Source: Flavobacteriaceae bacterium (lineage in GTDB: Bacteria > Bacteroidota > Bacteroidia > Flavobacteriales > Flavobacteriaceae). From it: 32,000 nt of DNA. Location of the stretch: positions 810,001-842,000 of the forward strand of contig OZ245049.1 in NCBI GenBank assembly GCA_965224465.1. The letters are read 5' to 3'. The notes beneath the pieces were generated by a model. That model did not search any database and was not told where the DNA came from. It saw only the letters and a list, made by a program, of their open reading frames with translations. Below, one piece after another: positions 1-19,287 of this stretch. Within the stretch, counting starts at the first letter, position 1. Each line of letters opens with the position of its first letter. Both the position numbers and the translations under genes were made by a program.

Positions 1-1709
<1,709 letters not shown>

Positions 1710-1755: not shown

Positions 1756-1920
1756 ATTAGTAATTCTTATATTAATATTGATGAAATCTATAGTCACCTC
1801 TAAATAACACATATAATACAACCTCAAAAACAGCCCCTAATGACAGGTTAAACATTATAAAAAAAAGAAAATAGATCAAGACATATTGAAAGACGCTCTC
1901 ATTATTTCAACAAATCCGGC

Positions 1921-2385
1921 AGCTATAAAAACAGGAATTAATCAAGTAGAATTACGATTAGTACACGTCCAATAAACCTGACGAGAATAAGCTCCTATAA
2001 ATCATAACAAATCAATAAGACTCAAAGCAAGAACAATTGCGTACCTGTAAAAAAAAAGGTTGAAATATAGGGGATTGTTCAAAGCAAGGAAACAAAAATC
2101 ACAAATTAAAACAGGCATCATGACAAGTAAAAATACAGTAAAATCACAGATGTATACTGCGCATATCTTTTACGTCACAAATAGCAAGAACGCTTGCCTA
2201 TAAAAAATACAATTTGTAAAAATTTCCGGGTGCGCGTGAAATTATATACCTGTGTTAATCTGTTTAAGTTTATGTTGTTTCTAATTACAGTTTTCACCCC
2301 CAATTTGAGCGTTTAATTCTCAGAGACGCTGCCTCTAAATAAAGAATAGTCTTTCAAAGTAAAGATCAACTCCTAGGAGGGGGAT
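1921..2385 (-). repeat. partial copy (lipoprotein-proximal half) of the non-coding spacer also present at 11179-11632 and 18103-18557
   Basis: Near-identical from AGCTATAAAAACAGGAATTAATCAAG onward. Homology to the other copies stops at 1921; further left is unique sequence leading to katG. Confidence 0.9.
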
Positions 2386-2585
2386 TTAGTTTACAATATC
2401 ACCTTCGTTATACTCGTGTCTTATTTTAAATAGTTTATCCTTTTTAAAGAATAAAGACACTGAGGAATTCCCTGCCCTTGTAGAATTAATAGCATGAGAA
2501 AATGTAAAGTGCCACACATTATAATTCATTATATCTGGATCAAAATCTTTTTCCAACCACTTATTAGAAAGTACAATTTGGTATT

Positions 2586-3712: not shown

Positions 3713-4201
3713 ATTTTTTATATATGGGATTTTTGTAAATCGATAGTAACTTTTTATAGATCTCTCCAAGTGGACCATTAACATGGATAGCGATTTGATC
3801 CGATACATTTTCTGGCCATTTTGGAATAGCATCCAAAAGAGCCCCTCCTTTTTCTATAGCACTTACCTTGTTTTGATTAAATCGGATAAGGACCCGTTGT
3901 GTGACTCCCAATGTTCTCTCTAAAGTAATAGCGTGGTATAAACTAATATCACTTTTAATTTCAGTTGGATTTGAAAAGGGTTGCCTGTAAGGTATTGATA
4001 CATCGTGAAAATTTTTCTCTATCCCTAATTCTTGTAGTTGACGGTACACATCTGTAGGAGAACTTCCAATTTTAAGTTTCCATTTTTTCCCACTAGTTAT
4101 GTTTTCAGTTTTCGGAAAATCAACATCTATTTCACACGAGAATAAAAAGAATAAAGAGGCGATTAATAAAGCTATTTTTTTCATGATCTTAATTTATATG
4201 T

Positions 4202-4391
4202 TCAACCATTTATCTTTTTGGATAATTTTCCCACATCGTCATCATCGGCTGCTTTATAAAGATTTTTTACTTCTTTATTTTGATGTTTCCAAAAGAAACC
4301 AGCACTCATGCAGGCATCTTTTAAATTGGAGGCTATTTTTTTTGAAAAAGTTTTAAGTGTTACTATAACGTTTTCTGCAAATAGCGTATAA
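4202..4391 (-). pseudogene. 3'-truncated orphan effector fragment fused to the amplification junction
   Basis: Minus strand encodes ...FSKKIASNLKDACMSAGFFWKHQNKEVKNLYKAADDDDVGKLSKKING then a stop. Homology to the effector ends at 4204/4205, where upstream sequence of the 222-aa lipoprotein gene begins. Confidence 0.8.
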
Positions 4392-5123
4392 TCATTCCTT
4401 TATAATATTTCTTTTAATTTCAGTAATATCTTGTAATTTATTAATATCAATATATTTGTTGTAATTATTAATATTAATTAAGGTATCAAGTTGGTAATAA
4501 TATTCTTCCTCGTCCATCCTAAAATTATATTTCATAAATACTTTATTAATAGTTAATGTATTGTTGTTATTTATTTTAAAGTAAATATCATAAGCTTGTA
4601 AATAATTATTATGCATCTTAAATTTAGCCAAAGTGTCATTAATTTTTATAATTTCTAGTGAACCTGACATATTGCTAGGGCCGTATGGTCTTTTAGCCTC
4701 GCCATAGTTACAATAAGTGTAAAATATAAACTCCTTTTTGTCCTTTGTTTTTTTTAAATGAATAGGATAGGTGCTAAATTTATTAGTCCCTGTTTTATAA
4801 TAACTCAATTCGTTGAAAGATTGAATTACAAATCTTGAAGTTTTATTATTTAAAGTAATTTTACTTTCTGTTTCTTCATTTTCTTTATGAAACAAAACAG
4901 TATCTCCTTCTTTTACTGGAAGTGTATGTATTAGATTTCTAACAAACCCTTTTTTACGTCTATTAGTTTCTATATTACTATAGTCATATATAATAGTATC
5001 TATGACTATAGTATTCTTTTTATTCTCTGTATTTTTTAGAGTCATTTTACAAGAATTTGTAATCATTAAACAAAATAATACTAATAGTACACTACTGGTT
5101 CTTTTCACAATTTTCATAATCAA
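4392..5123 (-). CDS. 243-aa lipoprotein, putative immunity protein (variant a)
   Basis: Signal peptide plus lipobox-like LMITNSC. Paralog of five other ORFs in the window. Start overlaps the preceding effector fragment by 32 nt. Confidence 0.85.
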   Translation of the reverse strand: MIMKIVKRTSSVLLVLFCLMITNSCKMTLKNTENKKNTIVIDTIIYDYSNIETNRRKKGFVRNLIHTLPVKEGDTVLFHKENEETESKITLNNKTSRFVIQSFNELSYYKTGTNKFSTYPIHLKKTKDKKEFIFYTYCNYGEAKRPYGPSNMSGSLEIIKINDTLAKFKMHNNYLQAYDIYFKINNNNTLTINKVFMKYNFRMDEEEYYYQLDTLININNYNKYIDINKLQDITEIKRNIIKE

Positions 5124-5424
5124 ATATTAATTTTAAATCATCTGTATATTTTTGGCGTTGGATTAATCCTTTTGTACCTCCATTTATCTTTTTGGTTAAT
5201 TTTTCCACATCATCATCATCAGCTGCTTTATAAAGATTTTTTACTTCTTTATTTTGATGTTTCCAAAAGAAACCAGCACTCATGCAGGCATCTTTTAAAT
5301 TGGAGGCTATTTTTTTTGAAAAAGTTTTAAGTGTTTCTATAACATTTTCTGCAAATAGCGCATAATCATTCCTTTCTAATATTTCTTTTAATTTCAGTAA
5401 CATCTTGTAATTTATTAATATCAA
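5092..5424 (-). pseudogene. orphan effector C-terminal cassette (tip type 2); here the frame is open for 110 codons
   Basis: The last 63 aa are identical to the C-terminus encoded at 7037-7228. Effector homology begins around TLKTFSKKIASNLKDAC. The extra upstream codons overlap the 3' end of immunity gene 5366-6097. Confidence 0.8.
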
Positions 5425-6097
5425 TATATTTGTTGTAATTATTAATATTAATTAAGGTATCAAGTTGGTAATAATATTCTTCCTCGTCAATCCTAAAATT
5501 ATATTTCATAAATACTTTATTAATAGTTAATGTATTGTTGTTATTTATTTTAAAGTAAATATCATAAGCTTGTAAATTATTATTATGCACATCAAATTTT
5601 GCTAAAGTATCATTGATTTTTATAATATCTACTGCGCTTGACATAGCACTAGGTCCGTATACTTTTTCAGCCTCGCCATAATTACAATAAGTGTAAAATA
5701 TAAACTCCTTTTGGGCCTTTATTTTTTTTAAACTAATAAGGTAGGTGCTAAATTTATTGGTACCTGTTTTATAATAACTCGATCCGTTAGAAGATTGAAC
5801 TACAAAACTTGAAGTATTGTAATTTATATTAATTTTACTTTCTGTTTCTCCATTTTCTTTAAGAAACAAAACAGTATCACCTTCTTTTACAGGAAGTGTA
5901 TGTATTAAGTCCAAATCAAATCCTTCTTTACGTCTATTTGTCTCTATATTACTATAGTCATATATAATAGTATCTATAACGATACTATTACTGCTCTTCT
6001 CTGTGTTTTTTAGAGTCATTTTACAAGAATTTGTAATCATTAAACAAAATAATACTAATAGTACACTACTGGTTCTTTTCACAATTTTCATAATCAA
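5366..6097 (-). CDS. 243-aa lipoprotein, putative immunity protein (variant b)
   Basis: Same N-terminal signal and lipobox and same conserved C-terminal half as the paralogs, with a variable central region. Confidence 0.85.
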   Translation of the reverse strand: MIMKIVKRTSSVLLVLFCLMITNSCKMTLKNTEKSSNSIVIDTIIYDYSNIETNRRKEGFDLDLIHTLPVKEGDTVLFLKENGETESKININYNTSSFVVQSSNGSSYYKTGTNKFSTYLISLKKIKAQKEFIFYTYCNYGEAEKVYGPSAMSSAVDIIKINDTLAKFDVHNNNLQAYDIYFKINNNNTLTINKVFMKYNFRIDEEEYYYQLDTLININNYNKYIDINKLQDVTEIKRNIRKE

Positions 6098-6254
6098 ATA
6101 TTATTTTTAAATCATCCGTATATTTTTGGCGTTGGCTTAATCCATTTCTACCTCCATTTATTGCTTTAGTTATTTTTTTTACATCATCGTCATCAGCAGA
6201 TTTATAAACATCAAAATATTGATTTTGATGTTTCCAAAAGAAACCAGCACTCAT
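6066..6254 (-). pseudogene. orphan effector C-terminal cassette (tip type 3)
   Basis: 62-aa MSAGFFWKHQNQYFDVYKSADDDDVKKITKAINGGRNGLSQRQKYTDDLKIIFDYENCEKNQ, identical to the fragments at 13960-14148 and 15002-15190. There is no N-terminal catalytic part upstream. Confidence 0.85.
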
Positions 6255-6336
6255 GCAGGCATCTTTTAAATTGGAGGCTATTTTTTTTGAAAAAATTTTA
6301 AGTGTTTCTATAACGTTTTCTGCAAATAGCGTATAA

Positions 6337-7068
6337 TCATTCCTTTATAATATTTCTTTTAATTTCAGTAACATCTTGTAGCTTGTAAAGGTCAATATAT
6401 TTATTCTTATTATTAATATTTATTAAGGTATCAAGTTGGTAATAATATTCTTCCTCGTCCATCCTAAAGTTATATTTCATAAATACTTTATTAATAGTTA
6501 ATGTATTGTTATTATCTATTTTAAAGTAAATATCATAAGCTTCTAAATTATTATTATGCACATCAAATTTAGCTAAAGTGTCATTGATTTTTATGATATC
6601 TACTGCGCTTGACATATTACTAGGGCCGTATGGTTTTTTAGCTTCGCCATAGTTACAATAAATATAAAATAGAAACTCCTTTTTGTCCTTTATTTTTTTT
6701 AAATGAATAGGATAGGTGCTAAATTTATTAGTACCTGTTTTATAATATCTCAATTCGTTGAAAGATTGAATTACGAAACTTGAAGTTTTATTATTTATAT
6801 TAATTTTACTTCCTTTCTCTTGTGAAAACTTAATAAACAAAACAGTATCACCTTCTTTTACAGGAAGTGTATGTATTAAGTCCAAATCAAATCCATCTTT
6901 ACGTCTATTAGTTTCTATATTACTATAGTCATAGATAATAGTATCTATAACGATACTATTACTGCTCTTCTCTGTATTTTTTAGAGTCATTTTACAAGAA
7001 CATGTAATAATTAAAGAAAATAATACTAATAGCACACTACTGGTTCTTTTCACAATTTTCATAATCAA
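6337..7068 (-). CDS. 243-aa lipoprotein, putative immunity protein (variant c), directly downstream of the IS66-disrupted effector
   Basis: Paralog of the other immunity-like lipoproteins, with a 32-nt overlap with the effector 3' end. Confidence 0.85.
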   Translation of the reverse strand: MIMKIVKRTSSVLLVLFSLIITCSCKMTLKNTEKSSNSIVIDTIIYDYSNIETNRRKDGFDLDLIHTLPVKEGDTVLFIKFSQEKGSKININNKTSSFVIQSFNELRYYKTGTNKFSTYPIHLKKIKDKKEFLFYIYCNYGEAKKPYGPSNMSSAVDIIKINDTLAKFDVHNNNLEAYDIYFKIDNNNTLTINKVFMKYNFRMDEEEYYYQLDTLININNKNKYIDLYKLQDVTEIKRNIIKE

Positions 7069-7566
7069 ATATTAATTTTAAATCATCTGTATATTTTTGG
7101 CGTTGGATTAATCCTTTTGTACCTCCATTTATCTTTTTGGTTAATTTTTCCACATCATCATCATCAGCTGCTTTATAAAGATTTTTTACTTCTTTATTTT
7201 GATGTTTCCAAAAGAAACCAGCACTCATGCAGGCATCTTTTAAATTGGAGGCTATTTTTTTTGAAAAAGTTTTAAGTGTTTTTAAAAATTTTTCAGGGAA
7301 GCCATGTTTAGTGCCATACTTTGCTAAGTAAGCGGTAACACTTTGGTATTTATCATCACGTTTTGCAATATAAATTTTAAAAAGAGGCGTAAATACTTCA
7401 GTACTATTAGATTCTTTATGAATAATTCTTTCTTGTTCGTCGTAACAAGCTAAATAGTTGTAATCGTGTGTTATTTGTTTTATTCCTCTACCTCTAAATT
7501 CTCTACCTCCATAATAGTTTAAACCATCTCCTTTATTTGTAAGCGTACGGTAAAGTACACCCTTGA

Positions 7567-9069
7567 TTATTTATCAACAGGCTTCCAATTTTGAGGCAGT
7601 AACTCCGAAAGTTTATTAGCCTTATGTTCTGGTAATCTATTAAGGACATCACATAGCCACGTATGTGGGTTTACGTTATTCTTTTTGCAAGTAGCAAAAA
7701 AGCTATAAAATAGAGCTATGTTTTGTGCGGACTCATGACTGCCAGCAAAGAGATAATTTTTTCTGCCAATAGCTAAAGGTCTTATGGCATTTTCTATATT
7801 ATTGTTGTCTATTTCAAACCTGCCATCATCGATGTATAGTTTTAGGTTTTGCCATATTTTAAGAGTATAAGCAATTGCTTTTCCTATGGCACTTTTAGGC
7901 AGTACGTTTTTTCGCTCTTTTGTAAGATAAATTTCTATTCCGTCTAAAACAGGTGATGCATGTTTTTCTCTATATGCTTTAGTTTGCTCAATAGTTAATT
8001 CTTGTTCTTTTATTTTACGTTCTATCTTGTATAGCTTTTGAATTTCCAACAAAACAACATCCGCTCTTTTAGGATCATTATCCAGCGCCTTCTCAAAATA
8101 CCGCCTAGCATGAGCCATGCAACCTAAAAGAGTAATTTCTCCTTTTGTTGTTAAGTTTTGGTATGCAGCATACCCATCGGACTGTAGTGTCCCATTGAAA
8201 TCTTTAAAAAACTCTTCTGGAACAACTTTTCCTCTCCCTTTATTGTATTCAAAAAGAACTAAATTTTTAACAGGATTTCGATACACCCACATATACCCTC
8301 TGTGTGTTGATTTTTTCTTGTCTTTATCTAAAACCTTTATAGGAGATTCGTCTGCTTGAATATAATTGGCATTTTCTAAAAACTGAGCCTTAAATGTATC
8401 GTATAAAGGAGCGATAAGCTCCGAACTTTTAGATACCCATCCTCCAATTGTTGATTTACTTACTTTTAAATCTTGTCGTTTAAAAATTTGAATTAATCTG
8501 TAAAGTGGTAAATGGTCTACAAATTTTGAAATAAGTATAAAGGCCAATAAACTTGCTGATGCATTTCCTTTAGGTATCGGTAAGCTTGGTAATTCTGCTA
8601 TAACAACGCCTTTTTCTTCCGGAAGTGCATATTTAGGTCTTACAATTCGTCTTACAAAAACGGAAAGAGGCGTTATTTCTAAAAGTTCTGTAACTTCTTC
8701 TCCTATTTTTACAGCTCCTTCTTCTATGTGCTTAGGCTCTATAATCTCTTCTACTCTCGGAAAATGCGCAGGTATAGAAGAGCGAACAGGTTTTTTCTTT
8801 CCTTTCTTCTTTTGTTTTCTTTCGTAGATTACAATATGTTTTTTGTATGCCTCTTCTTTCTCAGCTATTATTTTTCCGAAAAGCGACAATTGATTTGTGT
8901 CAACAGGGATAAAACGTTCGCTTTTAGACCCGAAAACCATTCTTTTAAGCTGCTCGTATTGCTGCTTAATTTCAGCTAGTTCTTGAGCTTTTTTTTCAAG
9001 TTCAATCTTTAAAATTACCAGCTCTTTTTGTATGTCTATTGTATTGTTTTCCACACTATAAATATACAA
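7567..9069 (-). CDS. IS66-family transposase (TnpC-type)
   Basis: 500 aa with an N-terminal coiled coil followed by FGSKSERF, a central DDE-like region and CMAHARRYF, all typical of IS66 transposases. Confidence 0.92.
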   Translation of the reverse strand: MYIYSVENNTIDIQKELVILKIELEKKAQELAEIKQQYEQLKRMVFGSKSERFIPVDTNQLSLFGKIIAEKEEAYKKHIVIYERKQKKKGKKKPVRSSIPAHFPRVEEIIEPKHIEEGAVKIGEEVTELLEITPLSVFVRRIVRPKYALPEEKGVVIAELPSLPIPKGNASASLLAFILISKFVDHLPLYRLIQIFKRQDLKVSKSTIGGWVSKSSELIAPLYDTFKAQFLENANYIQADESPIKVLDKDKKKSTHRGYMWVYRNPVKNLVLFEYNKGRGKVVPEEFFKDFNGTLQSDGYAAYQNLTTKGEITLLGCMAHARRYFEKALDNDPKRADVVLLEIQKLYKIERKIKEQELTIEQTKAYREKHASPVLDGIEIYLTKERKNVLPKSAIGKAIAYTLKIWQNLKLYIDDGRFEIDNNNIENAIRPLAIGRKNYLFAGSHESAQNIALFYSFFATCKKNNVNPHTWLCDVLNRLPEHKANKLSELLPQNWKPVDK

Positions 9070-9112
9070 AAAACAAGACTAAATAGCAGGTAAAACCTAC
9101 AGTTTTATTGAA

Positions 9113-9466
9113 TTATTTAGCCTCTAAATAACGTTCGTTTTTCTGAGTATTTATAATACTAATTCCGTCTAAAACCATAACCATTTGGGTATAACTCAAA
9201 ACTACTAATCCATCTTCAATGTCGTATTTTGGAAGCTCAAAAATACCTCGTTCCAATCGTTTATAATACAGTACAAATCCTCCAGGTCGCCAATGAAGAA
9301 GTTTTAGTTTATTTTTTTGCTTATTGATAAATGCATAAACACTATTTCTATCTCGCTCTTGTTCCATGTGCTCACTAACTAATCCACTTAATCCATTAAA
9401 TCCTTTTCGCATATCAACTGCAGATAAGTGATAATAATACGTGTGTTCTGTACCTAATCCTAACAT
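9113..9466 (-). CDS. IS66 Orf2 / TnpB-like accessory protein
   Basis: 117 aa with VDMRKGFNGLSGLV and LLHWRPGGFVLYYKRLERGIFELP, the characteristic IS66 Orf2 pattern, immediately upstream of the transposase. Confidence 0.9.
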   Translation of the reverse strand: MLGLGTEHTYYYHLSAVDMRKGFNGLSGLVSEHMEQERDRNSVYAFINKQKNKLKLLHWRPGGFVLYYKRLERGIFELPKYDIEDGLVVLSYTQMVMVLDGISIINTQKNERYLEAK

Positions 9467-10106
9467 TTATATTTTCGTTTTTGTTTAGATGCAAAAATTA
9501 GATTATTTTTAACTTCTTACAAGATGTAGTTCTCCGTACGCTTACCTTTATTTAGAGCTTCATAGGTATTTACAAATCTTGTTGATTCATGGTAAGATTG
9601 TGCTAGAAAATGAATTTTACGAATACATGTTTTTATGTCATATTTATTAAAAGTTTTGTTTAGGTATTCTGCAAATAGGCTATAATTGTTTGCCTCACTA
9701 GATTTTATTTTTTCACTTCTTTTAGATTGAAAAATATTAGTTCCTAAATCTGAAAATTTTGTTATCCTCTTAACAACTCTTTTAATTTCTTCTTTTCCTT
9801 CGTACTCTTTAGAAGAATATGTGCCTTTTTCTTTATCTATTAATTTGTAGAATCCTTTTTTCTTTTTTCTATCTTTTAATTCAAAAAATTCATCCCCATT
9901 GGCATTGCTATATAATTTATTTCCATTTTTATGAGATTGACCTTGGGCTTCAACTACAACTTCTTTTTCTCTTAATTCCTTAACTATCTTTTTTAACTCT
10001 GTTACTGTTATATCCCTATTACAATAACAAGGTTCAATAATGTTTAAATCTTCAAATTCATGACTTATATGTTCATGTTCTGTAAACCAAGCTCTTCCCA
10101 TAGTAT

Positions 10107-10805
10107 TTAGTTTTGTTCTGTAATTGTTTTTAACTTTAATTTCATTGTATCAGCCGTTATATTTACATGTAATATATCGTCTGTTAAAACTTCATTATTA
10201 TACTCAAAATCTAATTTGTTATTATCAAGGTCAATAGCCAATTCTTTACCCGCAGCGTTTAATGTTTTTAAAACAAAAAAGACTTCTTTACCTCGTTTTA
10301 AATTATTTTTTGGCATTTTATTACCCTCTAAATCGGTATAATACATTTCTATAATTTCAGGTTCTTCTTGTTGCTCTATTACAGTTGGTTCAACTTCTAT
10401 AAAAGGATCTTCAAACACCCAATTTTCTATTTTTTTAACATCTTTTATTTTAACAGCTCCACACGTTATCTCTAAATTAATGTGTAAGGGTAAATTGTCT
10501 TGATTGTCAAATTCTTCTGTAAGGCCTACAATATAGGCTTTGTGGAATTCTACTTTGTACAAGGTTTTAAACTCATCTCTGTCATAAAATATTAATTCAC
10601 CGCTAAAACTAGCATTTGGTGAAAACATATAGTGATACAAATCGCTATCAAACCCCGTAGATTCAAACATTAAATGGAATGGGCTTTTACGCGTTGTTGT
10701 CGTAGGATTTCCCGTAATATCTTTTAGTTTGTATAAGGTGTATTCTGCTCTTAATAACGTTCTTTCTTTTCCATCTATAATGGCGATGCCTTTAAAACTA
10801 CTCAT
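10107..10805 (-). CDS. tssD: type VI secretion tube protein TssD/Hcp-like with a ~95-aa C-terminal extension (copy 2)
   Basis: The N-terminal ~130 aa follow the Bacteroidota TssD pattern (see feature 17031-17729). Differs from copy 3 at one residue. Confidence 0.8.
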   Translation of the reverse strand: MSSFKGIAIIDGKERTLLRAEYTLYKLKDITGNPTTTTRKSPFHLMFESTGFDSDLYHYMFSPNASFSGELIFYDRDEFKTLYKVEFHKAYIVGLTEEFDNQDNLPLHINLEITCGAVKIKDVKKIENWVFEDPFIEVEPTVIEQQEEPEIIEMYYTDLEGNKMPKNNLKRGKEVFFVLKTLNAAGKELAIDLDNNKLDFEYNNEVLTDDILHVNITADTMKLKLKTITEQN

Positions 10806-11632
10806 GGCTTTTCAATTTCTGGATTCATCTTTTAATTTTTAATAGTTATAGATATTTTCTTACCCTGACACTAGCCCCATAGTATCACAATAGCAATTCC
10901 GAACATGATGGTATATCCATTTAGTTCACATTACAGGACGGGCTTATTATTAGGGTGTATCTATTTTTTTAAACGTAGGTCAAATATATAAAATAATGTT
11001 ATACGCAGCATGTTTTTATGGTTTACCCCCACATTTTAGGGGGTAAATCCCCGTAGCGCTGTCTAGAAACAGAAAACAATCTTTCGGAGTGCACCTTGTA
11101 CCCTCAGGTAAAAGCTGTTGGCTACAGATATAGTACTGTTTATTTGGTAATTACAAGAGGTTGACGGCTCTTTTACGTAGCTATAAAAACAGGAATTAAT
11201 CAAGTAGAATTACGATTAGTACACGTCCAATAAACCTGACGAGAATAAGCCCCTATAAATCATAACAAATCAATAAGACTCAAAACAAGAACAATTGCGT
11301 ACCTGTAAAAAAAAAGGTTGAAATATAGGGGGTTGTTCAAAGCAAGGAAACAAAAATCACAAATTAAAACATGCATCATGACAAGTAAAAATACAGATGT
11401 ATACTGCGCATATCTTTTACGTCACAAATAGCAAGAACGCTTGCCTATAAAAAAATACAATTTGTAAAAATTTCCGGGTGCGCGTGAAATTATATACCTG
11501 TGTTAATCTGTTTAAGTTTATGTTGTTCTAATTACAGTTTTCTCCCTCAATTTGAGCGTTTAATTCTCAGAGACGCTGCCTCTAAATAAAGAATAGTCTT
11601 TCAAAGTAAAGATCAAACCCTTAGAGGGGGAT
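10806..11632 (-). repeat. ~830-nt non-coding spacer between the lipoprotein gene and tssD (copy 2)
   Basis: No ORF of 60 aa or more on either strand. Near-identical to 17730-18557. Its lipoprotein-proximal half also occurs at 1921-2385. Confidence 0.9.
11022..11047. other. perfect 9-bp GC-rich stem-loop inside the spacer (TTTACCCCC-ACATTTTA-GGGGGTAAA)
   Basis: Read directly from the sequence. Not followed by a T-run on either strand, so it is not a canonical terminator. An identical copy lies at 17946-17971. Confidence 0.6.
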
Positions 11633-12301
11633 TTAGTTTACAATATCATCTTCGTTATACTCGTGTCTTATTTTAAATAGTTTATCCTTTTTAAAGAATA
11701 AAGACACTGAGGAATTCCCTGCCCTTGTAGAATTAATAGCATGAGAAAATGTAAAGTGCCACACATTATAATTCATCATATCTGGGTCAAAATCTTTTTC
11801 CAACCACTTATTAGAAAGCACAATTTGGTATTTTTCATATATGGGATTTTTGTAAATCGCTAGCAACTTTTTATAGATCTCTCCAAGTGGATCATTAACA
11901 TGGATAGCGATTTTATCCGATACATTTTCTGGCCATTTTGGAATAGCATCCAAAAGAGCCCCTCCTATTTCTATAGCACTTACCTTGTTTTGATTAAATC
12001 GGATAAGGATCCGTTGTGTGACTCCCAATGTTCTCTCTAAAGTAATAGCGTGGTATAAACTAATATCACTTTTAATTTCAGTTGGATTTGAAAAGGGTTG
12101 CCTGTAAGGTATTGAAACATCGTGAAAATTTTTCTCTATCCCTAATTCTTGTAGTTGACGGTACACGTCTATAGGAGAACTTCCAATTTGAAGTGTCCAT
12201 TTTTTCCCACTAGTTATGTTTTCAGTTTTCGGAAAATCATCATCTATTTCACACGAGAATAAAAAGAATAAAGAGGCGATTAATAAAGCTATTTTTTTCA
12301 T
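11633..12301 (-). CDS. 222-aa lipoprotein of unknown function (copy 2)
   Basis: MKKIALLIASLFFLFSCEIDDD... has a signal peptide plus lipobox Cys. By hand alignment it differs from copy 3 at 9 nucleotides, 6 of which change the amino acid. Confidence 0.85.
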   Translation of the reverse strand: MKKIALLIASLFFLFSCEIDDDFPKTENITSGKKWTLQIGSSPIDVYRQLQELGIEKNFHDVSIPYRQPFSNPTEIKSDISLYHAITLERTLGVTQRILIRFNQNKVSAIEIGGALLDAIPKWPENVSDKIAIHVNDPLGEIYKKLLAIYKNPIYEKYQIVLSNKWLEKDFDPDMMNYNVWHFTFSHAINSTRAGNSSVSLFFKKDKLFKIRHEYNEDDIVN

Positions 12302-12319
12302 GATCTTAATTTTATATGT

Positions 12320-12566
12320 TCAACCATTTATCTTTTTGGATAATTTTCCAACATCATCATCATCGGCTGCTTTATAAAGACCTTTTACTTCTTTATCTTG
12401 ATGTTTCCAAAAGAAACCAGCGCTCATGCAGGCATCTTTTAAATTGGAGGCTATTTTTTTTTGAAAAAGTTTTAAGTGTTACTATAACGTTTTCTGCAAA
12501 TAGCGTATAATCATTCCTTTATAATATTTCTTTTAATTTCAGTAATATCTTGTAATTTATTAATAT
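12320..12566 (-). pseudogene. 3'-truncated orphan effector fragment plus the last ~18 codons of an immunity gene, cut by IS30 copy B
   Basis: Encodes ...ACMSAGFFWKHQDKEVKGLYKAADDDDVGKLSKKING then a stop (12320-12427). Same junction with lipoprotein-upstream DNA as at 4204/4205. 12510-12566 matches an immunity 3' end (compare 4392-4447). Confidence 0.8.
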
Positions 12567-13691
12567 GCTGAATTCAAGTCACAAACGCAACTTTTAGTTA
12601 AATAATAATTGTTCCATTACAAATATAGGGTTTTGATATTTATGTCTCTTCCTAGGTCTGTTATTTAATTTTGTTTCTACCTCTTTGATTCTTTGATCTG
12701 TTAGGTTTGTAAAGTCACTTCCTTTGGCAAAATATTGTCTAATCAAACCATTTAAATTTTCGTTAGATCCTCTTTCCCAAGAGTGATATGGATGCGCAAA
12801 AAAGTAATCAATACATAAATTTTCTGCAACCTGCTCATGGCCTGCAAATTCTTTTCCATTATCAGCTGTTATAGTATGTAGATAAGGCTTCCAGTCTTCT
12901 AATATTTCATTGATAGCTTTAGTGACAACAACTGCTTCTTTAGAGCTTACTTTTTTCATTTTAAGCATTCCAGAAGCTCTATCATTTACGGTAAGTATGG
13001 CTTGATTATGGTTTTTACCTATGATTAAATCGACCTCTAAATCTCCAAATCGATTTCTTTGTTCAACAACTTCAGGGCGTTGTTCTATACTAATACGATT
13101 CTTTATAACCCCTCTAGAATCCTTTGATGAGCCACGTTTTCTATATCTCCTTCCCTGTCTGCGAAGGTGTGTATGTAAATCACCATCATTCCTCTTGTCT
13201 TCCCTAATATGCTGATATATACGCTCAATAGACACCGTTTCTTTACCTTGTTTTTTTAGGACACCAACTACTTGCTCAGGACTATAATCGTCTCGCAATA
13301 ACAACTCTATTGCTTGTTGAATATCTTCTGTAAAGCGTTTTCTTTTAGGCTTTTCTTTATGACGTTTAGCATACTTTTTTTGGGCTAATTCATGCTTGTA
13401 AACTCCATTTCTTTTGTCTGAATTACGCTTAATCTCTTTGCTAATAACAGACTTGTCTTTTCCTATAGCAGCTGCTATCTCAACCTGTTTATAACCTTGT
13501 TTTAACATGCAACAAATTGTGTATCTTTGCGCTTGGGTGATGTGTTTCATACAACTTCTTTTTTCGAGATTTGAGACCGTAAGATACATATCCATCAAGA
13601 CAAGAAAGGTAGGTTTTCCTACTTTTCTGTTTTGAAAATATAACCATCATAGAATCAAATCGAAAAGTTGCGTTTATTAGTTGAATTTAAG
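12567..13691 (-). mobile_element. IS30-family insertion sequence (copy B, inverted relative to copy A, diverged), with no target duplication
   Basis: Ends are GCTGAATTCAAGTCACAAACGCAACTT and AAGTTGCGTTTATTAGTTGAATTTAAG. The flanking triplets differ (TAT / AAT), and the flanks come from different parts of immunity genes. Confidence 0.85.
12594..13598 (-). CDS. IS30-family DDE transposase (the true start may be the internal MKHITQAQRYT at 13550)
   Basis: 334-aa ORF collinear with 2728-3705 (same HTH and DDE-region motifs) but with many substitutions. Confidence 0.9.
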   Translation of the reverse strand: MMDMYLTVSNLEKRSCMKHITQAQRYTICCMLKQGYKQVEIAAAIGKDKSVISKEIKRNSDKRNGVYKHELAQKKYAKRHKEKPKRKRFTEDIQQAIELLLRDDYSPEQVVGVLKKQGKETVSIERIYQHIREDKRNDGDLHTHLRRQGRRYRKRGSSKDSRGVIKNRISIEQRPEVVEQRNRFGDLEVDLIIGKNHNQAILTVNDRASGMLKMKKVSSKEAVVVTKAINEILEDWKPYLHTITADNGKEFAGHEQVAENLCIDYFFAHPYHSWERGSNENLNGLIRQYFAKGSDFTNLTDQRIKEVETKLNNRPRKRHKYQNPIFVMEQLLFN

Positions 13692-13991
13692 AATTAAAAA
13701 ACTTGAAGTTTTATTATTTATATTAATTTTACTTTCTCTTTCTCTATTTTCTTTAAGAAACAAAACAGTATCACCTTCTTTTACAGGAAGTGTATGTATT
13801 AAATCCAAATCAAATCCATCTTTACGTCTATTAGTTTCTATATTACTATAGTCATAGATAATAGTATCTATAACGATACTATTACTGCTCTTCTCTGTGT
13901 TTTTTAGAGTCATTTTACAAGAATTTGTAATCATTAAACAAAATAATACTAATAGTACACTACTGGTTCTTTTCACAATTTTCATAATCAA
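13692..13991 (-). pseudogene. immunity lipoprotein gene truncated after ~100 codons by IS30 copy B
   Basis: ORF 13677-13991 matches the d/e-type immunity N-terminus through KTSSFLI and then reads into the IS end. Confidence 0.85.
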
Positions 13992-14261
13992 ATATTATTT
14001 TTAAATCATCCGTATATTTTTGGCGTTGGCTTAATCCATTTCTACCTCCATTTATTGCTTTAGTTATTTTTTTTACATCATCGTCATCAGCAGATTTATA
14101 AACATCAAAATATTGATTTTGATGTTTCCAAAAGAAACCAGCACTCATGCAGGCATCTTTTAAATTGGAGGCTATTTTTTTTGAAAAAATTTTAAGTGTT
14201 ACTAAAAAGTTTTCAGGGAAGCCATGTTTAGTACCATACTTTGCTAAATAAGCCGTAACAC
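13960..14261 (-). pseudogene. orphan effector C-terminal cassette (tip type 3) with longer upstream homology
   Basis: Effector homology extends upstream to VTAYLAKYGTKHGFPENFLVTLKIFSKKIASNLKDAC and breaks at about 14261. Confidence 0.8.
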
Positions 14262-14292
14262 ATGGTTAGCAACTGGGCTTTTTTTAGTGATT

Positions 14293-15033
14293 TCAATAAT
14301 TGTACTTTCTTCTATTTTTTTTATCTCGAGCAGCCCTTTTTAGCTTGTAAAGATCAATATATTTGTTCTTGTGATTAATATTTATTAAGGTATCTAGTTG
14401 ACTATAAAATCTTTCCTCTTCATTCATGAAATTATATTTAATAATTACTTTATTAATAGTTAATGTATTGTTATTATCAATTTTAAAGTAAATATCATAA
14501 GCTTGTAAATTATTATTATGCACCTTAAATTTAGCCAAAGTGTCATTAATCTTTATAATTTCTAGTGAGCCTGACATATTGCTAGGGCCGTATGGTCTTT
14601 CAGCTTCGCCATAGTTACAATAAATGTAAAATGTAGACACCTTTTTTGTCTTTTTGTTTTTAATACTAATTGGGTAGGTGTTAAATTTATTAGTCCCTGT
14701 TTTATAATAACTCGATCCGTTGCTAGAAGATTGAATTAAAAAACTTGAAGTTTTATTATTTATATTAATTTTACTTTCTCTTTCTCTATTTTCTTTAAGA
14801 AACAAAACAGTATCACCTTCTTTTACAGGAAGTATATGTATTAAATCCAAATCAAATCCATCTTTACGTCTATTTGTCTCTATATTACTATAGTCATATA
14901 TAATAGTATCTATAACGATACTATTACTGCTCTTCTCTGTGTTTTTTAGAGTCATTTTACAAGAATTTGTAATCATTAAACAAAATAATACTAATAGTAC
15001 ACTACTGGTTCTTTTCACAATTTTCATAATCAA
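14293..15033 (-). CDS. 246-aa lipoprotein, putative immunity protein (variant d, altered C-terminus)
   Basis: Almost identical to 15273-16007 over most of its length. It ends ...YKLKRAARDKKNRRKYNY instead of ...YKLQDVTEIKRNIIKE. Confidence 0.85.
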   Translation of the reverse strand: MIMKIVKRTSSVLLVLFCLMITNSCKMTLKNTEKSSNSIVIDTIIYDYSNIETNRRKDGFDLDLIHILPVKEGDTVLFLKENRERESKININNKTSSFLIQSSSNGSSYYKTGTNKFNTYPISIKNKKTKKVSTFYIYCNYGEAERPYGPSNMSGSLEIIKINDTLAKFKVHNNNLQAYDIYFKIDNNNTLTINKVIIKYNFMNEEERFYSQLDTLININHKNKYIDLYKLKRAARDKKNRRKYNY

Positions 15034-15190
15034 ATATTATTTTTAAATCATCCGTATATTTTTGGCGTTGGCTTAATCCATTTCTACCTCCATTTATTGC
15101 TTTAGTTATTTTTTTTACATCATCGTCATCAGCAGATTTATAAACATCAAAATATTGATTTTGATGTTTCCAAAAGAAACCAGCACTCAT
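15002..15190 (-). pseudogene. orphan effector C-terminal cassette (tip type 3)
   Basis: 62-aa fragment identical to those at 6066-6254 and 13960-14148, preceded by ...FSKKIASNLKDAC homology only. Confidence 0.85.
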
Positions 15191-15272
15191 GCAGGCATCT
15201 TTTAAATTGGAGGCTATTTTTTTTGAAAAAATTTTAAGTGTTTCTATAACGTTTTCTGCAAATAGCGTATAA

Positions 15273-16007
15273 TCATTCCTTTATAATATTTCTTTTAATT
15301 TCAGTAACATCTTGTAGCTTGTAAAGGTCAATATATTTATTCTTATTATTAATATTTATTAAGGTATCAAGTTGGTAATAATATTCTTCCTCGTCCATCC
15401 TAAAGTTATATTTCATAAATACTTTATTAATAGTTAATGTATTGTTATTATCAATTTTAAAGTAAATATCATAAGCTTGTAAATTATTATTATGCACCTT
15501 AAATTTAGCCAAAGTGTCATTAATCTTTATAATTTCTAGTGAGCCTGACATATTGCTAGGGCCGTATGGTCTTTCAGCTTCGCCATAGTTACAATAAATG
15601 TAAAATGTAGACACCTTTTTTGTCTTTTTGTTTTTAATACTAATTGGGTAGGTGTTAAATTTATTAGTCCCTGTTTTATAATAACTCGATCCGTTGCTAG
15701 AAGATTGAATTAAAAAACTTGAAGTTTTATTATTTATATTAATTTTACTTTCTCTTTCTCTATTTTCTTTAAGAAACAAAACAGTATCACCTTCTTTTAC
15801 AGGAAGTATATGTATTAAATCCAAATCAAATCCATCTTTACGTCTATTAGTTTCTATATTACTATAGTCATAGATAATAGTATCTATAACGATACTATTA
15901 CTGCTCTTCTCTGTATTTTTTAGAGTCATTTTACAAGAATTTGTAATCATTAAACATAATAATACAAATAGTACACTACTGGTTCTTTTCACAATTTTCA
16001 TAATCAA
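15273..16007 (-). CDS. 244-aa lipoprotein, putative cognate immunity protein of the intact effector (variant e)
   Basis: Signal peptide plus LMITNSC lipobox. The start overlaps the effector stop region by 32 nt. Confidence 0.85.
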   Translation of the reverse strand: MIMKIVKRTSSVLFVLLCLMITNSCKMTLKNTEKSSNSIVIDTIIYDYSNIETNRRKDGFDLDLIHILPVKEGDTVLFLKENRERESKININNKTSSFLIQSSSNGSSYYKTGTNKFNTYPISIKNKKTKKVSTFYIYCNYGEAERPYGPSNMSGSLEIIKINDTLAKFKVHNNNLQAYDIYFKIDNNNTLTINKVFMKYNFRMDEEEYYYQLDTLININNKNKYIDLYKLQDVTEIKRNIIKE

Positions 16008-17025
16008 ATATTAATTTTAAATCATCTGTATATTTTTGGCGTTCCTTTAATCCAGTAACTCCACCATTTATCTTATCAGTTAGTTCTTCTACATCGTCAT
16101 CATCAGCTGCTTTATAAAGATTTTTTACTTCTTTATTTTGATGTTTCCAAAAGAAACCAGCACTCATGCAGGCATCTTTTAAATTGGAGGCTATTTTTTT
16201 TGAAAAAGTTTTAAGTGTTTTTAAAAATTTTTCAGGGAAGCCATGTTTAGTGCCATACTTTGCTAAGTAAGCGGTAACACTTTGGTATTTATCATCACGT
16301 TTTGCAATATAAATTTTAAAAAGAGGCGTAAATACTTCAGTACTATTAGATTCTTTATGAATAATTCTTTCTTGTTCGTCGTAACAAGCTAAATAGTTGT
16401 AATCGTGTGTTATTTGTTTTATTCCTCTACCTCTAAATTCTCTACCTCCATAATAGTTTAAACCATCTCCTTTATTTAGAGCTTCATAGGTATTTACAAA
16501 TCTTGTTGATTCATGGTAAGATTGTGCTAGAAAATGAATTTTACGAATACATGTTTTTATGTCATATTTATTAAAAGTTTTGTTTAGGTATTCTGCAAAT
16601 AGGCTATAATTGTTTGCCTCACTAGATTTTATTTTTTCACTTCTTTTAGATTGAAAAATATTAGTTCCTAAATCTGAAAATTTTGTTATCCTCTTAACAA
16701 CTCTTTTAATTTCTTCTTTTCCTTCGTACTCTTTAGAAGAATATGTGCCTTTTTCTTTATCTATTAATTTGTAGAATCCTTTTTTCTTTTTTCTATCTTT
16801 TAATTCAAAAAATTCATCCCCATTGGCATTGCTATATAATTTATTTCCATTTTTATGAGATTGACCTTGGGCTTCAACTACAACTTCTTTTTCTCTTAAT
16901 TCCTTAACTATCTTTTTTAACTCTGTTACTGTTATATCCCTATTACAATAACAAGGTTCAATAATGTTTAAATCTTCAAATTCATGACTTATATGTTCAT
17001 GTTCTGTAAACCAAGCTCTTCCCAT
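15976..17025 (-). CDS. putative T6SS cargo effector: GH19/COG3179-type lysozyme-like peptidoglycan hydrolase with a charged N-terminal region (intact copy)
   Basis: Contains IHFLAQSYHESTRF (catalytic Glu context), FRGRGIKQITHDYNY, CMSAGFFWKHQ and INGGVTGLKERQ. These match the predicted-chitinase/GH19 lysozyme family pattern as I recall it. Starts 5 nt after tssD. Confidence 0.8.
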   Translation of the reverse strand: MGRAWFTEHEHISHEFEDLNIIEPCYCNRDITVTELKKIVKELREKEVVVEAQGQSHKNGNKLYSNANGDEFFELKDRKKKKGFYKLIDKEKGTYSSKEYEGKEEIKRVVKRITKFSDLGTNIFQSKRSEKIKSSEANNYSLFAEYLNKTFNKYDIKTCIRKIHFLAQSYHESTRFVNTYEALNKGDGLNYYGGREFRGRGIKQITHDYNYLACYDEQERIIHKESNSTEVFTPLFKIYIAKRDDKYQSVTAYLAKYGTKHGFPEKFLKTLKTFSKKIASNLKDACMSAGFFWKHQNKEVKNLYKAADDDDVEELTDKINGGVTGLKERQKYTDDLKLIFDYENCEKNQ

Positions 17026-17030
17026 AGTAT

Positions 17031-17729
17031 TTAGTTTTGTTCTGTAATTGTTTTTAACTTTAATTTCATTGTATCAGCCGTTATATTTACATGTAATATA
17101 TCGTCTGTTAAAACTTCATTATTATACTCAAAATCTAATTTGTTATTATCAAGGTCAATAGCCAATTCTTTACCTGCAGCGTTTAATGTTTTTAAAACAA
17201 AAAAGACTTCTTTACCTCGTTTTAAATTATTTTTTGGTATTTTATTACCCTCTAAATCGGTATAATACATTTCTATAATTTCAGGTTCTTCTTGTTGCTC
17301 TATTACAGTTGGTTCAACTTCTATAAAAGGATCTTCAAACACCCAATTTTCTATTTTTTTAACATCTTTTATTTTAACAGCTCCACACGTTATCTCTAAA
17401 TTAATGTGTAAGGGTAAATTGTCTTGATTGTCAAATTCTTCTGTAAGGCCTACAATATAGGCTTTGTGGAATTCTACTTTGTACAAGGTTTTAAACTCAT
17501 CTCTGTCATAAAATATTAATTCACCGCTAAAACTAGCATTTGGAGAAAACATATAGTGATACAAATCGCTATCAAACCCCGTAGATTCAAACATTAAATG
17601 GAATGGGCTTTTACGCGTTGTTGTCGTAGGATTTCCCGTAATATCTTTTAGTTTGTATAAGGTGTATTCTGCTCTTAATAACGTTCTTTCTTTTCCATCT
17701 ATAATGGCGATGCCTTTAAAACTACTCAT
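17031..17729 (-). CDS. tssD: type VI secretion tube protein TssD/Hcp-like with a ~95-aa C-terminal extension (copy 3)
   Basis: MSSFKGIAIIDGKERTLLRAEYTLYKLKDITGNPTTTTRKSPFHLMFESTGFDSDLYHYMF...GELIFYDRDE...YIVGLTEEFD...INLEITCGAVKIKDVKKIENW is collinear with Bacteroidota TssD proteins. Then comes an acidic linker EVEPTVIEQQEEPEIIE and an extra domain. Confidence 0.8.
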   Translation of the reverse strand: MSSFKGIAIIDGKERTLLRAEYTLYKLKDITGNPTTTTRKSPFHLMFESTGFDSDLYHYMFSPNASFSGELIFYDRDEFKTLYKVEFHKAYIVGLTEEFDNQDNLPLHINLEITCGAVKIKDVKKIENWVFEDPFIEVEPTVIEQQEEPEIIEMYYTDLEGNKIPKNNLKRGKEVFFVLKTLNAAGKELAIDLDNNKLDFEYNNEVLTDDILHVNITADTMKLKLKTITEQN

Positions 17730-18557
17730 GGCTTTTCAATTTCTGGATTCATCTTTTAATTTTTAATAGTTATAGATATTTTCTTACCCTGACACTAGCC
17801 CCATAGTATCACAATAGCAATTCCAAACATGATGGTATATCCATTTAGTTCACATTACAGGACGGGCTTATTATTAGGGTGTATCTATTTTTTTAAACGT
17901 AGGTCAAATATATAAAATAATGTTATACGCAGCATGTTTTTATGGTTTACCCCCACATTTTAGGGGGTAAATCCCCGTAGCGCTGTCTAGAAACAGAAAA
18001 CAATCTTTCGGAGTGCACCTTGTACCCTCAGGTAAAAGCTGTTGATTACAGGTATAGTGCTGTTTATCTAGTAATTACAAGAGGTTGACGGCTCTTTTAC
18101 TCAGCTATAAAAACAGGAATTAATCAAGTAGAATTACGATTAGTACACGTCCAATAAACCTGACGAGAATAAGCCCCCTATAAATCATAACAAATCAATA
18201 AGACTCAAAACAAGAACAATTGCGTACCTGTAAAAAAAAAGGTTGAAATATAGGGGGTTGTTCAAAGCAAGGAAACAAAAATCACAAATTAAAACATGCA
18301 TCATGACAAGTAAAATCACAGATGTATACAGCACATATCTTTTACGTCACAAATAGCAAGAACGCTTGCCTATAAAAAAATACAATTTGTAAAAATTTCC
18401 TGGTGCGCGTGAAATTATATACCTGTGTTAATCTGTTTAAGTTTATGTTGTTCTAATTACAGTTTTCTCCCTCAATTTGAGCGTTTAATTCTCAGAGACG
18501 CTGCCTCTAAATAAAGAATAGTCTTTCAAAGTAAAGATCAACCCCTAGGAAGGGGAT
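17730..18557 (-). repeat. ~830-nt non-coding spacer between the lipoprotein gene and tssD (copy 3)
   Basis: Near-identical to 10806-11632, with small clusters of substitutions (for example around 18040-18075 and 18310-18345). Confidence 0.9.
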
Positions 18558-19226
18558 TTAGTTTACAATATCATCTTCGTTATACTCGTGTCTTATTTTA
18601 AATAGTTTATCCTTTTTAAAGAATAAAGACACTGAGGAATTCCCTGCCCTTGTAGAATTAATAGCATGAGAAAATGTAAAGTGCCACACATTATAATTCA
18701 TCATATCTGGGTCAAAATCTTTTTCCAACCACTTATTAGAAAGCACAATTTGGTGTTTTTCATATATGGGATTTTTGTAAATCGATAGCAACTTTTTATA
18801 GATCTCTCCAAGTGGATCATTAACATGGATAGCGATTTGATCCGATACATTTTCTGGCCATTTTGGAATAGCATCCAAAAGAGCCCCTCCTTTTTCTATA
18901 GCACTTACCTTGTTTTGATTAAATAGGATAAGGATCCGTTGTGTGACTCCCAATGTTCTCTCTAAAGTAATAGCGTGGTATAAACTAATATCACTTTTAA
19001 TTTCAGTTGGATTTGAAAAGGGTTGCCTGTAAGGTATTGAAACATCGTGAAAATCTTTCTCTATCCCTAATTCTTGTAGTTGACGGTACACATCTATAGG
19101 AGAACTTCCAATTTGAAGTGTCCATTTTTTTCCACTAGTTATGTTTTCAGTTTTCGGAAAATCATCATCTATTTCACACGAAAATAAAAAGAATAAAGAG
19201 GCGATTAATAAAGCTATTTTTTTCAT
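18558..19226 (-). CDS. 222-aa lipoprotein of unknown function (copy 3); candidate orphan immunity protein of the upstream metallopeptidase remnant
   Basis: Signal peptide plus lipobox (LFFLFSC). Starts 61 nt downstream of the stop of the HExxH fragment. Confidence 0.85.
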   Translation of the reverse strand: MKKIALLIASLFFLFSCEIDDDFPKTENITSGKKWTLQIGSSPIDVYRQLQELGIEKDFHDVSIPYRQPFSNPTEIKSDISLYHAITLERTLGVTQRILILFNQNKVSAIEKGGALLDAIPKWPENVSDQIAIHVNDPLGEIYKKLLSIYKNPIYEKHQIVLSNKWLEKDFDPDMMNYNVWHFTFSHAINSTRAGNSSVSLFFKKDKLFKIRHEYNEDDIVN

Positions 19227-19287
19227 GATCTTAATTTTATATGTTCATACTTAGGTTTACCGATTGAAATAAAAAAACATTCATATT

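Follow-up and report, generated by a model that had tools for sequence, protein, structure and literature searches.

A tandemly duplicated Hcp-effector-immunity module in a Flavobacteriaceae genome, with a candidate pairing between an Hcp extension and an effector leader

The window analysed here is a stretch of 32,000 nucleotides (nt) from a Flavobacteriaceae bacterium (assembly GCA_965224465.1, contig OZ245049.1, positions 810,001 to 842,000), and our subject is a three-gene module within it, which encodes an Hcp (TssD) protein of a type VI secretion system (T6SS) with a C-terminal extension, a lysozyme-like effector and a lipoprotein proposed to give immunity. All module genes lie on the minus strand, and the coordinates given to them by an earlier interpretation made from the letters alone (hereafter the sequence-only reading) match real open reading frames (ORFs) in the ORF list. 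The genes and their parts, in window positions, are as follows.

17031-17729, minus strand: Hcp-A, whole ORF, 232 amino acids (aa)
17340-17729, minus strand: Hcp/TssD core of Hcp-A, aa 1-130 (Pfam, PDB sequence match, AlphaFold2 (AF2) model and Foldseek)
17283-17339, minus strand: acidic flexible linker of Hcp-A, aa ~131-149, EDPFIEVEPTVIEQQEEPE (low predicted local distance difference test score, pLDDT)
17031-17282, minus strand: C-terminal extension of Hcp-A, called type A, aa ~150-232 plus stop, a ~85-aa beta-sandwich in the AF2 model
15976-17025, minus strand: effector, whole ORF, 349 aa, beginning 5 nt past the Hcp stop codon
16960-17025, minus strand: effector leader, aa 1-22, MGRAWFTEHEHISHEFEDLNII, the proposed extension-binding tag
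16888-16953, minus strand: conserved CxC motif and helix of the effector, aa 25-46, CYCNRDITVTELKKIVKELREK (alignment of 69 homologues, AF2)
16621-16887, minus strand: K/E-rich variable insertion of the effector, aa ~47-135, a predicted beta-rich subdomain (AF2, alignment)
15976-16620, minus strand: GH19-type lysozyme-like catalytic domain of the effector, aa ~136-349 plus stop (sequence and fold match to 9ms7)
15273-16007, minus strand: immunity lipoprotein A1, 244 aa, with a lipoprotein signal and a 32-nt overlap with the 3' end of the effector gene

Hcp-A is a TssD family member both by profile score and by its predicted tail-tube beta-barrel fold. Its aa 3-130 match Pfam TssD (PF17642) with E=1e-24 and 87.3 bits against a cutoff of 25.8, and the nearest solved sequences are Hcp1 of Flavobacterium johnsoniae (6bdc, 1.8e-10) and TssD of Bacteroides fragilis. 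In an AF2 model built on 16 sequences, the Hcp fold occupies aa 1-122, the acidic linker at aa 123-144 has a pLDDT below 50, and a six-strand all-beta domain follows at aa 150-229 with a pLDDT of 85-91; the top Foldseek matches of this model are 8gra_B (1.3e-8, TMt 0.74) and 6bdc (4.1e-8, TMt 0.77). The extension has no toxin family match, and its profile gives no significant match to PDB sequences (E 0.084 at best) nor any Pfam family that recurs consistently. The Pfam family DUF7238 was considered as its identity and rejected, being sub-threshold in 4 of 16 full-length proteins and in only 1 of 32 isolated domains. Moreover, the same genome encodes at least four further extended Hcp paralogues (P0099/P0115, P0104, P0106 and P0107/P0117), in which the core is nearly identical to that of Hcp-A and the extensions are different.

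As for the effector, no Pfam or NCBIfam model is found at E<=0.1, nor is there a match to Pfam PF00182. Its aa ~138-340 match GH19-type endolysins of known structure by sequence (PWe2 9ms7 at 2.9e-10, and also 8xcl and 9eoi), and its AF2 model, with a mean pLDDT of 88.8, is matched by Foldseek to 9ms7 (2e-7, TMt 0.70), to the T6SS effector TseP (8xcl, 3.6e-4), and further to the GH19 endolysin 9eoi, the SPN1S endolysin 4ok7 and GH19 chitinases. Alignments of 21 and then of 69 homologues, chiefly from Tenacibaculum, Flavobacterium and Chryseobacterium, revealed that E172 (in an HES motif), E181, a GRG motif and H207 are invariant in the 69. E172 and E181 are taken, as in GH19 endolysins, to be the candidate catalytic glutamates. 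The assignment of the effector to the GH19-type, lysozyme-like endolysins is supported by sequence, by predicted fold and by these conserved glutamates together, and hydrolysis of peptidoglycan (or chitin) is its predicted activity.

The homologues follow a common plan, which opens with a variable N-terminus; then comes a near-invariant CxC motif with its helix (CYCNRDxTxxExKxIxxxLRKK), next a stretch whose length varies, and last the catalytic domain. Across the 69 sequences C27 and R44 are invariant and C25 nearly so, and the four cysteines C25, C27, C159 (in TCIRKIHF) and C345 (in the C-terminal YENC) are invariant or nearly invariant as a set; they may form disulfides in the periplasm after delivery. 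Helix 33-46 reaches a pLDDT of 97 in the model, and residues 1-20, which hold most of the leader, stay below 50 in the isolated protein. In the K/E-rich insertion six beta strands are predicted over aa 48-114 (pLDDT 61-89). Its length in the homologues varies between about 0 and about 100 aa: most of them have it, and relatives in Chryseobacterium and Flavobacterium all but lack it. Since there are six predicted strands and the region varies in length across the family, the stretch is probably a folded subdomain typical of this family and not a loose linker. When the insertion was deleted in silico, the effector aligned to 9ms7 only from chain residue 18 onward, and residues 1-17 were not gained.

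In outline, the sequence-only reading agrees with these results. It named the three genes in the right order and with broadly the right identities, as the ORFs, Pfam and the PDB sequence and fold matches bear out; it had described a TssD-like part of about 130 aa, where PF17642 and the modelled Hcp fold now place the 232-aa protein in TssD well above the cutoff, then an acidic linker and an extra beta-rich domain, both of which reappear in the AF2 model, and an effector start 5 nt later, as the ORF coordinates confirm. The lysozyme-like module that it saw in the 349-aa protein is recovered as a GH19-type endolysin match in the PDB, by sequence and by predicted fold, and the Pfam family match that might have accompanied it was not found. 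Two details did not survive. The supposed charged insertion is not a loose K/E-rich linker, with its six predicted strands and its place in a variable-length region of the family; and the idea that it splits off a canonical first helix of the lysozyme fold finds no sequence confirmation for helix 33-46, as the insertion-deleted alignment beginning at residue 18 of 9ms7 shows.

The third gene, A1, lies downstream of the effector and encodes a lipoprotein signal, and it co-occurs with the effector family: its homologues follow GH19-like effectors in the Tenacibaculum loci L017 and L018 (E 1e-24 to 4e-57). On these features it is assigned as an immunity gene, its neutralisation of the effector being predicted.

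What makes the module worth attention is the relation between the Hcp extension and the effector leader when other loci are compared. In two Hcps, P0110 and P0111, the cores are only 24-25% identical to that of Hcp-A and the extensions are 77-82% identical. On the Ulvibacter contig that holds P0111 (locus L001), a 637-aa effector starts 5 nt downstream of the Hcp gene with MGRAWFTEYEHVSTDFENLTIV, to be compared with MGRAWFTEHEHISHEFEDLNII of the window effector, the remainder of the protein being unrelated; in locus L019 a type-A extension is accompanied by a 519-aa effector that starts with MGRAWFTDFENISADFDNLNIV and is otherwise unrelated to the window effector. The window leader is 62-67% identical to the leaders of these two effectors. 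When the DNA of the window and of L001 is compared, an identity of about 78% is confined to the segment between Hcp nt ~420 and effector nt ~66; it falls to random level on either side, the left breakpoint being the acidic linker. Within this block, the extension shows a synonymous divergence (dS) of 1.14 and a nonsynonymous divergence (dN) of 0.14, with dN/dS 0.12, and the leader a dS of 0.96 and a dN of 0.23, with dN/dS 0.23. Because dS is near saturation while dN is low, long-term constraint at the protein level is indicated and not a recent transfer.

Three side observations concern these loci. In L019 (5598-6303) the type-A Hcp gene is split by a frameshift into calls of 80 aa and 100 aa on a metagenome scaffold, which is probably an assembly error and not a stand-alone extension domain. 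The effectors of L001 (8702-10615) and L019 (6309-7868) end in S-x-H-x-N-G-x-x-x-D, resembling peptidoglycan peptidases of the LAS/VanY type. Moreover, part of the interior of both effectors, that of L001 and that of L019 (an ENA scaffold), looks like the extension domain.

Other extension types behave in the same way. Hcps in a metagenome-assembled genome (MAG) of dolphin-oral Flavobacteriia have cores 78-81% identical to that of Hcp-A; a second extension type, found in the MAG loci L002, L004-L008 and L011, accompanies the leader MAGFVVTPENTLNIQ / MAGFVVTPENTLNIQHRRV, and a third, in L009 and L010, accompanies the leader ..DQRTFMGTVSF[DE]SGRG..MR..F on two different toxins. Plain Hcps of 134-139 aa are also present in the dolphin-oral MAG. 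In L012 and L016 the same acidic linker and Hcp core are fused directly to HExxH toxins. These T6SSiii Hcp-toxin fusions (L012, 2542-4305; L016, 3431-5086) carry toxin domains of about 400 aa, and each is followed by a small ORF with a signal peptide, probably its immunity gene.

A prediction could also be made from the leader alone. In the GH19-like homologue P0015 the leader, MTNKRNTGTASFDSGKGNTLKIKF, resembles type C, and therefore a type-C extension was predicted on the Hcp upstream of it. The prediction held twice in Tenacibaculum locus L017, where two Hcps with another core both carry type-C extensions, and each is followed by a different toxin bearing the same leader. The L017 modules adjoin a gene for a ClpV-like ATPase, and another locus with a GH19-like effector, L021, lies in a cluster with TssF.

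To put the pairing on a quantitative footing, nine Hcp-effector pairs from four sources were compared, comprising three extension types (A, B and C) and three leader types. In Mantel tests over these pairs, the extension correlates with the leader at r=0.84 (p=0.0002), as against r=0.20 (p=0.09) for the extension with the Hcp core and r=0.24 (p=0.10) for the leader with the toxin body. The comparison shows that extension type and leader type vary together, and that Hcp cores and toxin bodies are swapped independently of them. The spacing of the Hcp and effector genes, 5 nt in the window, ranges from -8 to +6 nt elsewhere. Taken together, the architecture (a C-terminal domain on a structural protein with cargo encoded downstream), the co-variation that points to specificity between carrier and cargo, and the prediction that held are what is looked for in an adaptor. 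The sequence-only reading had proposed that the Hcp extension and the effector insertion form a matched adaptor/cargo pair; the first half of this proposal stands, in that the extension behaves like a cargo adaptor, and the second does not, the part of the effector that tracks the extension being the leader of about 22 residues and not the insertion.

Considering these results, we lean, with some reservation, to the view that the locus encodes an auxiliary cargo module of a T6SS of subtype iii (T6SSiii), in which the extension of a specialised Hcp would receive the leader of a peptidoglycan-hydrolase effector and a lipoprotein would provide immunity. The binding of extension to leader, which we infer from the comparison of related loci, would make the extension a receptor for the N-terminus of the effector, probably taking up the leader as added beta strands. 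Cargo too large for the Hcp lumen (the effectors range from 349 to 637 aa) could in this manner be tethered non-covalently to a specialised Hcp, and the arrangement would be a two-polypeptide counterpart of the Hcp-toxin fusions that related genomes contain. The tight gene spacing would couple expression with assembly. After firing of the T6SS, the effector would cleave peptidoglycan in the periplasm of the target cell, and the lipoprotein, presumably facing the periplasm, would protect the producer and its kin. Specialised Hcps of this kind may form only a terminal or a mixed ring, as can be compared with the minor Hcps of Bacteroidales (PMC13213661).

A number of observations weigh against this view. 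Only four sources supplied the nine pairs, which are not independent of one another. It is not obvious how six domains of 85 aa and a 40-kDa cargo would fit in a sheathed tube. The flanking ORFs of the 32-kb window that were scanned against Pfam yielded no T6SS core gene, as the sequence-only reading had also noted. In addition, an exhaustive search gave 191 cluster representatives of the extension family, and while most of them are at Hcp C-termini, the family also occurs on PAAR-like/DUF4150-like proteins and near the N-termini of effectors; the role of the domain may for this reason be broader than, or different from, the one proposed, and the extension may be a general T6SS module whose binding partners vary. 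Many homologous GH19-like effectors, moreover, have no adjacent Hcp: they stand in orphan effector-immunity arrays (L018, L022, L023 and L024), in a VgrG island (L020) or elsewhere (L025). Finally, the extension and the leader are adjacent in the DNA, so that their co-inheritance is partly expected from linkage alone and the correlation between them is inflated.

The last point leads to the strongest of the alternatives, namely that extension and leader are inherited together as neighbours and do not bind each other at all. The extension would in that case cap or mark the terminal Hcp ring, contact VgrG or the sheath, or bind the target, and the leader would be read by some other component. 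Besides the contiguity of the two coding segments, the presence of the domain family on PAAR-like proteins and within effectors, and that of similar leaders on effectors without an adjacent Hcp, are in its favour. Linkage by itself, however, would hardly account for breakpoints that flank the block on both sides in independent lineages, for purifying selection on both halves at saturated dS, for three extension types each retaining a leader type of its own while Hcp cores and toxins differ, or for the out-of-sample prediction that held in L017. We regard this alternative as unlikely, albeit one that deserves to be taken seriously.

Two further groups of observations concern the wider use of the domain. 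The effector-like proteins P0199, P0175, P0226, P0220 and their relatives have one to three copies of the extension domain near the N-terminus, behind the conserved leader MSKAQLINRSDLPKEPNYN, and their toxin parts are M23 plus lysozyme, DUF6402 or Rhs. In L021 (Flavobacterium sp. ZT3R18), a GH19-like effector lies inside a core cluster behind a DUF4280 PAAR-like protein of 351 aa (2940-3995), which ends 5 nt before the effector, and the effector leader is of yet another type, GRVLRFKSADGDTRFQDV. The hidden Markov model of the extension missed the C-terminal beta-rich part of this DUF4280 protein, the resemblance to the extension being by eye only; this part may be an analogous receptor borne by PAAR.

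A bolder generalisation is that the T6SSiii of Flavobacteriia employs a modular loading code, in which a portable leader of about 22-25 aa on any effector would be read by a cognate receptor of about 85 aa on an Hcp (and on PAAR-like proteins), with at least three orthogonal types (A, B and C) coexisting in a genome; the swap of a 22-aa tag could then be enough to reprogramme cargo specificity. We put this forward tentatively, as an idea that falls somewhat short of probable.

The module was described by the sequence-only reading as standing alone, and this proved not to be the case: it is duplicated in tandem within an island rich in insertion sequences (IS) that carries orphan immunity arrays. 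In a self-comparison of the window, 9545-12322 and 16469-19247 proved to be copies of each other at 98.9% identity. The island extends over about 1920-19250 with a guanine-plus-cytosine (GC) content of 0.25-0.31, against 0.33-0.38 in the flanks. Its further features, with one gene of the left flank at the end, are listed here.

10107-10805, minus strand: Hcp-B, differing from Hcp-A by 1 aa
7037-10101, minus strand: effector-B, interrupted by the IS66 element; a 349-aa ORF is regained on in-silico removal of the element
7539-9545: IS66-family element within effector-B, with TnpB at 9113-9466 and the transposase at 7567-9069
~12562-13694, minus strand: IS30-family element (Pfam HTH_38 and rve) at the junction of the two units, truncating immunity A3
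2583-3712: IS30 element, splitting the 222-aa lipoprotein gene in its third copy, in opposite orientation to the copy at ~12562-13694
15002-15190 and 14293-15033, minus strand: module A orphan cassette, effector remnant and immunity A2 (ORFs, self-similarity)
13960-14148 and 13677-13991, minus strand: module A orphan cassette, effector remnant and truncated immunity A3 (ORFs, self-similarity)
6337-7068, minus strand: module B immunity B1, in the array 4392-7068
6066-6254 and 5366-6097, minus strand: module B cassette, effector remnant and immunity B2
5092-5424 and 4392-5123, minus strand: module B cassette, effector remnant and immunity B3
18558-19226, minus strand: 222-aa lipoprotein gene, at the head of the repeat unit
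11633-12301: 222-aa lipoprotein gene, second copy, at the head of its repeat unit
3708-4184 and 1920-2582: 222-aa lipoprotein gene, third copy, split by the IS30 element 2583-3712
3-1709, minus strand: katG-like catalase-peroxidase gene, a 569-codon open stretch with KatG-like motifs, crossing the left window end

The IS66 element is identified by NCBIfam (transposase 9e-121, TnpB 1e-25) and carries GTAAGCGTACGG as terminal inverted repeats, with CTTTATTT as its 8-bp target duplication; since the target duplication is intact and excision restores the 349-aa ORF, the insertion looks recent. Past the break made by this element the two modules diverge more, with 93% nucleotide identity between the effector copies and between the immunity genes, and 86% identity between the immunity proteins. 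The extent of the IS30 element at ~12562-13694 was set from its homology of 75-76% to the other IS30 copy. As IS30 elements stand at the boundaries of the tandem repeat units, an IS-mediated duplication or rearrangement of the island is suggested. In later events, IS30 and IS66 elements remodelled the island and put one effector copy out of action.

Each orphan cassette consists of the last 62-110 codons of an effector gene and an immunity paralogue. Six immunity paralogues, five of them behind effector 3' remnants, were counted beyond the span that the sequence-only reading gave to the module; the immunity paralogues are 77-98% identical, and the remnants are of two sequence types. The divergent effector C-termini, the duplicated module and the orphan cassettes would fit recombination-driven diversification with stockpiling of immunity genes.

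Concerning the 222-aa lipoprotein, neither Pfam nor NCBIfam gave a family match, and none was seen beside an Hcp in the related loci compared. A terminator-like hairpin at 18540-18558 lies directly 3' of its gene, which is probably transcribed separately from the Hcp module. On the left the island is flanked by katG, whose KatG-like product (3-1709) has a lipoprotein-like signal at its N-terminus, and on the right by genes that Pfam assigns to DUF4349, to a TolC/MacB/HlyD efflux set, to a porin and to other families. Rfam and tRNA scans of the window had no matches, and a sigma-70 promoter scan of it gave 26 sites against 29.7 expected, the consensus used being of the wrong type for Bacteroidota.

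Such an island raises another possibility, that the locus is a decaying orphan relic in a genome with no working T6SS, kept at most for immunity against the effectors of neighbours. Two IS30 elements and one IS66 within 17 kb, one effector copy disrupted, one immunity gene and one lipoprotein gene truncated, six immunity paralogues that resemble acquired defence arrays, and the lack of core genes among the flanking ORFs scanned all speak for it. Nevertheless, module A is fully intact with its tight gene spacing, the genome holds the further extended Hcp paralogues with their different extensions, and the IS66 insertion looks recent, so we consider the relic explanation improbable. As for the notion that the extension recognises the ~100-aa K/E-rich insertion of the effector, which had its appeal in that both are unusual additions encoded in adjacent genes, it is scarcely tenable: P0015 in L017 has the same kind of insertion and yet its extension partner is only 35% identical to that of Hcp-A, the L001 and L019 effectors lack the insertion though the extensions paired with them are 77-78% identical to that of Hcp-A, and the insertion belongs to the GH19-like effector family whatever the carrier, with insertion-bearing homologues also behind a PAAR-like gene (L021), in the VgrG island (L020) and within orphan arrays.

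The selection of cargo and its loading onto Hcp are still unsettled in the T6SS field, and the T6SSiii of non-gut Bacteroidota has barely been studied. If the proposed pairing of a receptor domain on Hcp with a transferable leader is real, it would provide a new route for loading large effectors that are unable to fit the Hcp lumen, together with a rule for finding effectors in Flavobacteriia, namely a leader that matches an Hcp extension; it would also offer a compact tag for engineering T6SS delivery. The locus further displays the diversification of effectors and immunity genes and IS-driven decay within one compact island. Hcp-effector-immunity modules, Hcp-toxin fusions, adaptors borne on the spike, effector-specific minor Hcps, GH19-like T6SS effectors (TseP) and orphan arrays are already known, and a non-toxic C-terminal receptor domain on Hcp matched to a short effector leader was not found in the literature searched.

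Comparison with known systems makes the position of the module clearer. Its effector shares with GH19-type endolysins and the C-terminal domain of TseP (9ms7, 9eoi, 4ok7 and 8xcl) the catalytic fold and the motifs HES...E, GRG.xQ.T and ING...G...R, and differs from them in the leader, the CxC motif, a beta insertion of about 90 aa after the first helix and another insertion of about 60 aa inside the catalytic domain, at aa ~215-276. The orphan cassettes resemble the toxin-tip and immunity arrays of Rhs/CdiA in their tandem toxin 3' fragments with diverged immunity genes and a conserved junction sequence; here, in contrast, the effector is a small Hcp-linked lysozyme and the remnants are only its last ~60-110 codons. 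Orphan immunity proteins have been mentioned for Bacteroidales (PMC10470768).

Among carriers, the so-called evolved Hcps, or Hcp-ET, are described by Ma et al. 2017 (as cited in PMC13213661) and in bioRxiv 10.1101/2021.10.07.463556 as carrying a toxin domain at the C-terminus, with an immunity gene after them. Hcp-A is like them a specialised Hcp with a C-terminal addition in an auxiliary module that includes an immunity gene, whereas its addition is a beta-sandwich of about 85 aa without toxin features, the toxin is separate and begins 5 nt downstream, and the gene after the Hcp is the effector, with the immunity gene coming next. An identity of Hcp-A as an Hcp-ET fusion was accordingly rejected, the extension having no toxin family match and the next gene being an effector and not an immunity gene.

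On the spike, transthyretin-like C-terminal domains of VgrG and PAAR proteins act as adaptors that recruit a cargo effector encoded downstream. Putative C-terminal adaptor domains on T6SS core proteins have also been discussed (bioRxiv 10.1101/2021.10.07.463556). The module has in common with these a structural component with a small C-terminal beta domain and an adjacent cargo gene, and the extension family is found on PAAR-like proteins as well; the difference is that the carrier here is Hcp, and that the cargo determinant would be an N-terminal peptide of about 22 aa instead of a folded domain. The minor Hcps of Bacteroidales, which assemble into heteromeric rings and single out particular effectors (PMC13213661; PDB 9vne), come close in another respect, since they too belong to T6SSiii, with several Hcp paralogues per system and with specialised Hcps beside effectors giving specificity. 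Their additions, however, are insertions within the core, with no C-terminal folded domain, and their specificity is ascribed to the ring, whereas in the Flavobacteriaceae module it would reside in the pairing of a C-terminal extension with a leader.

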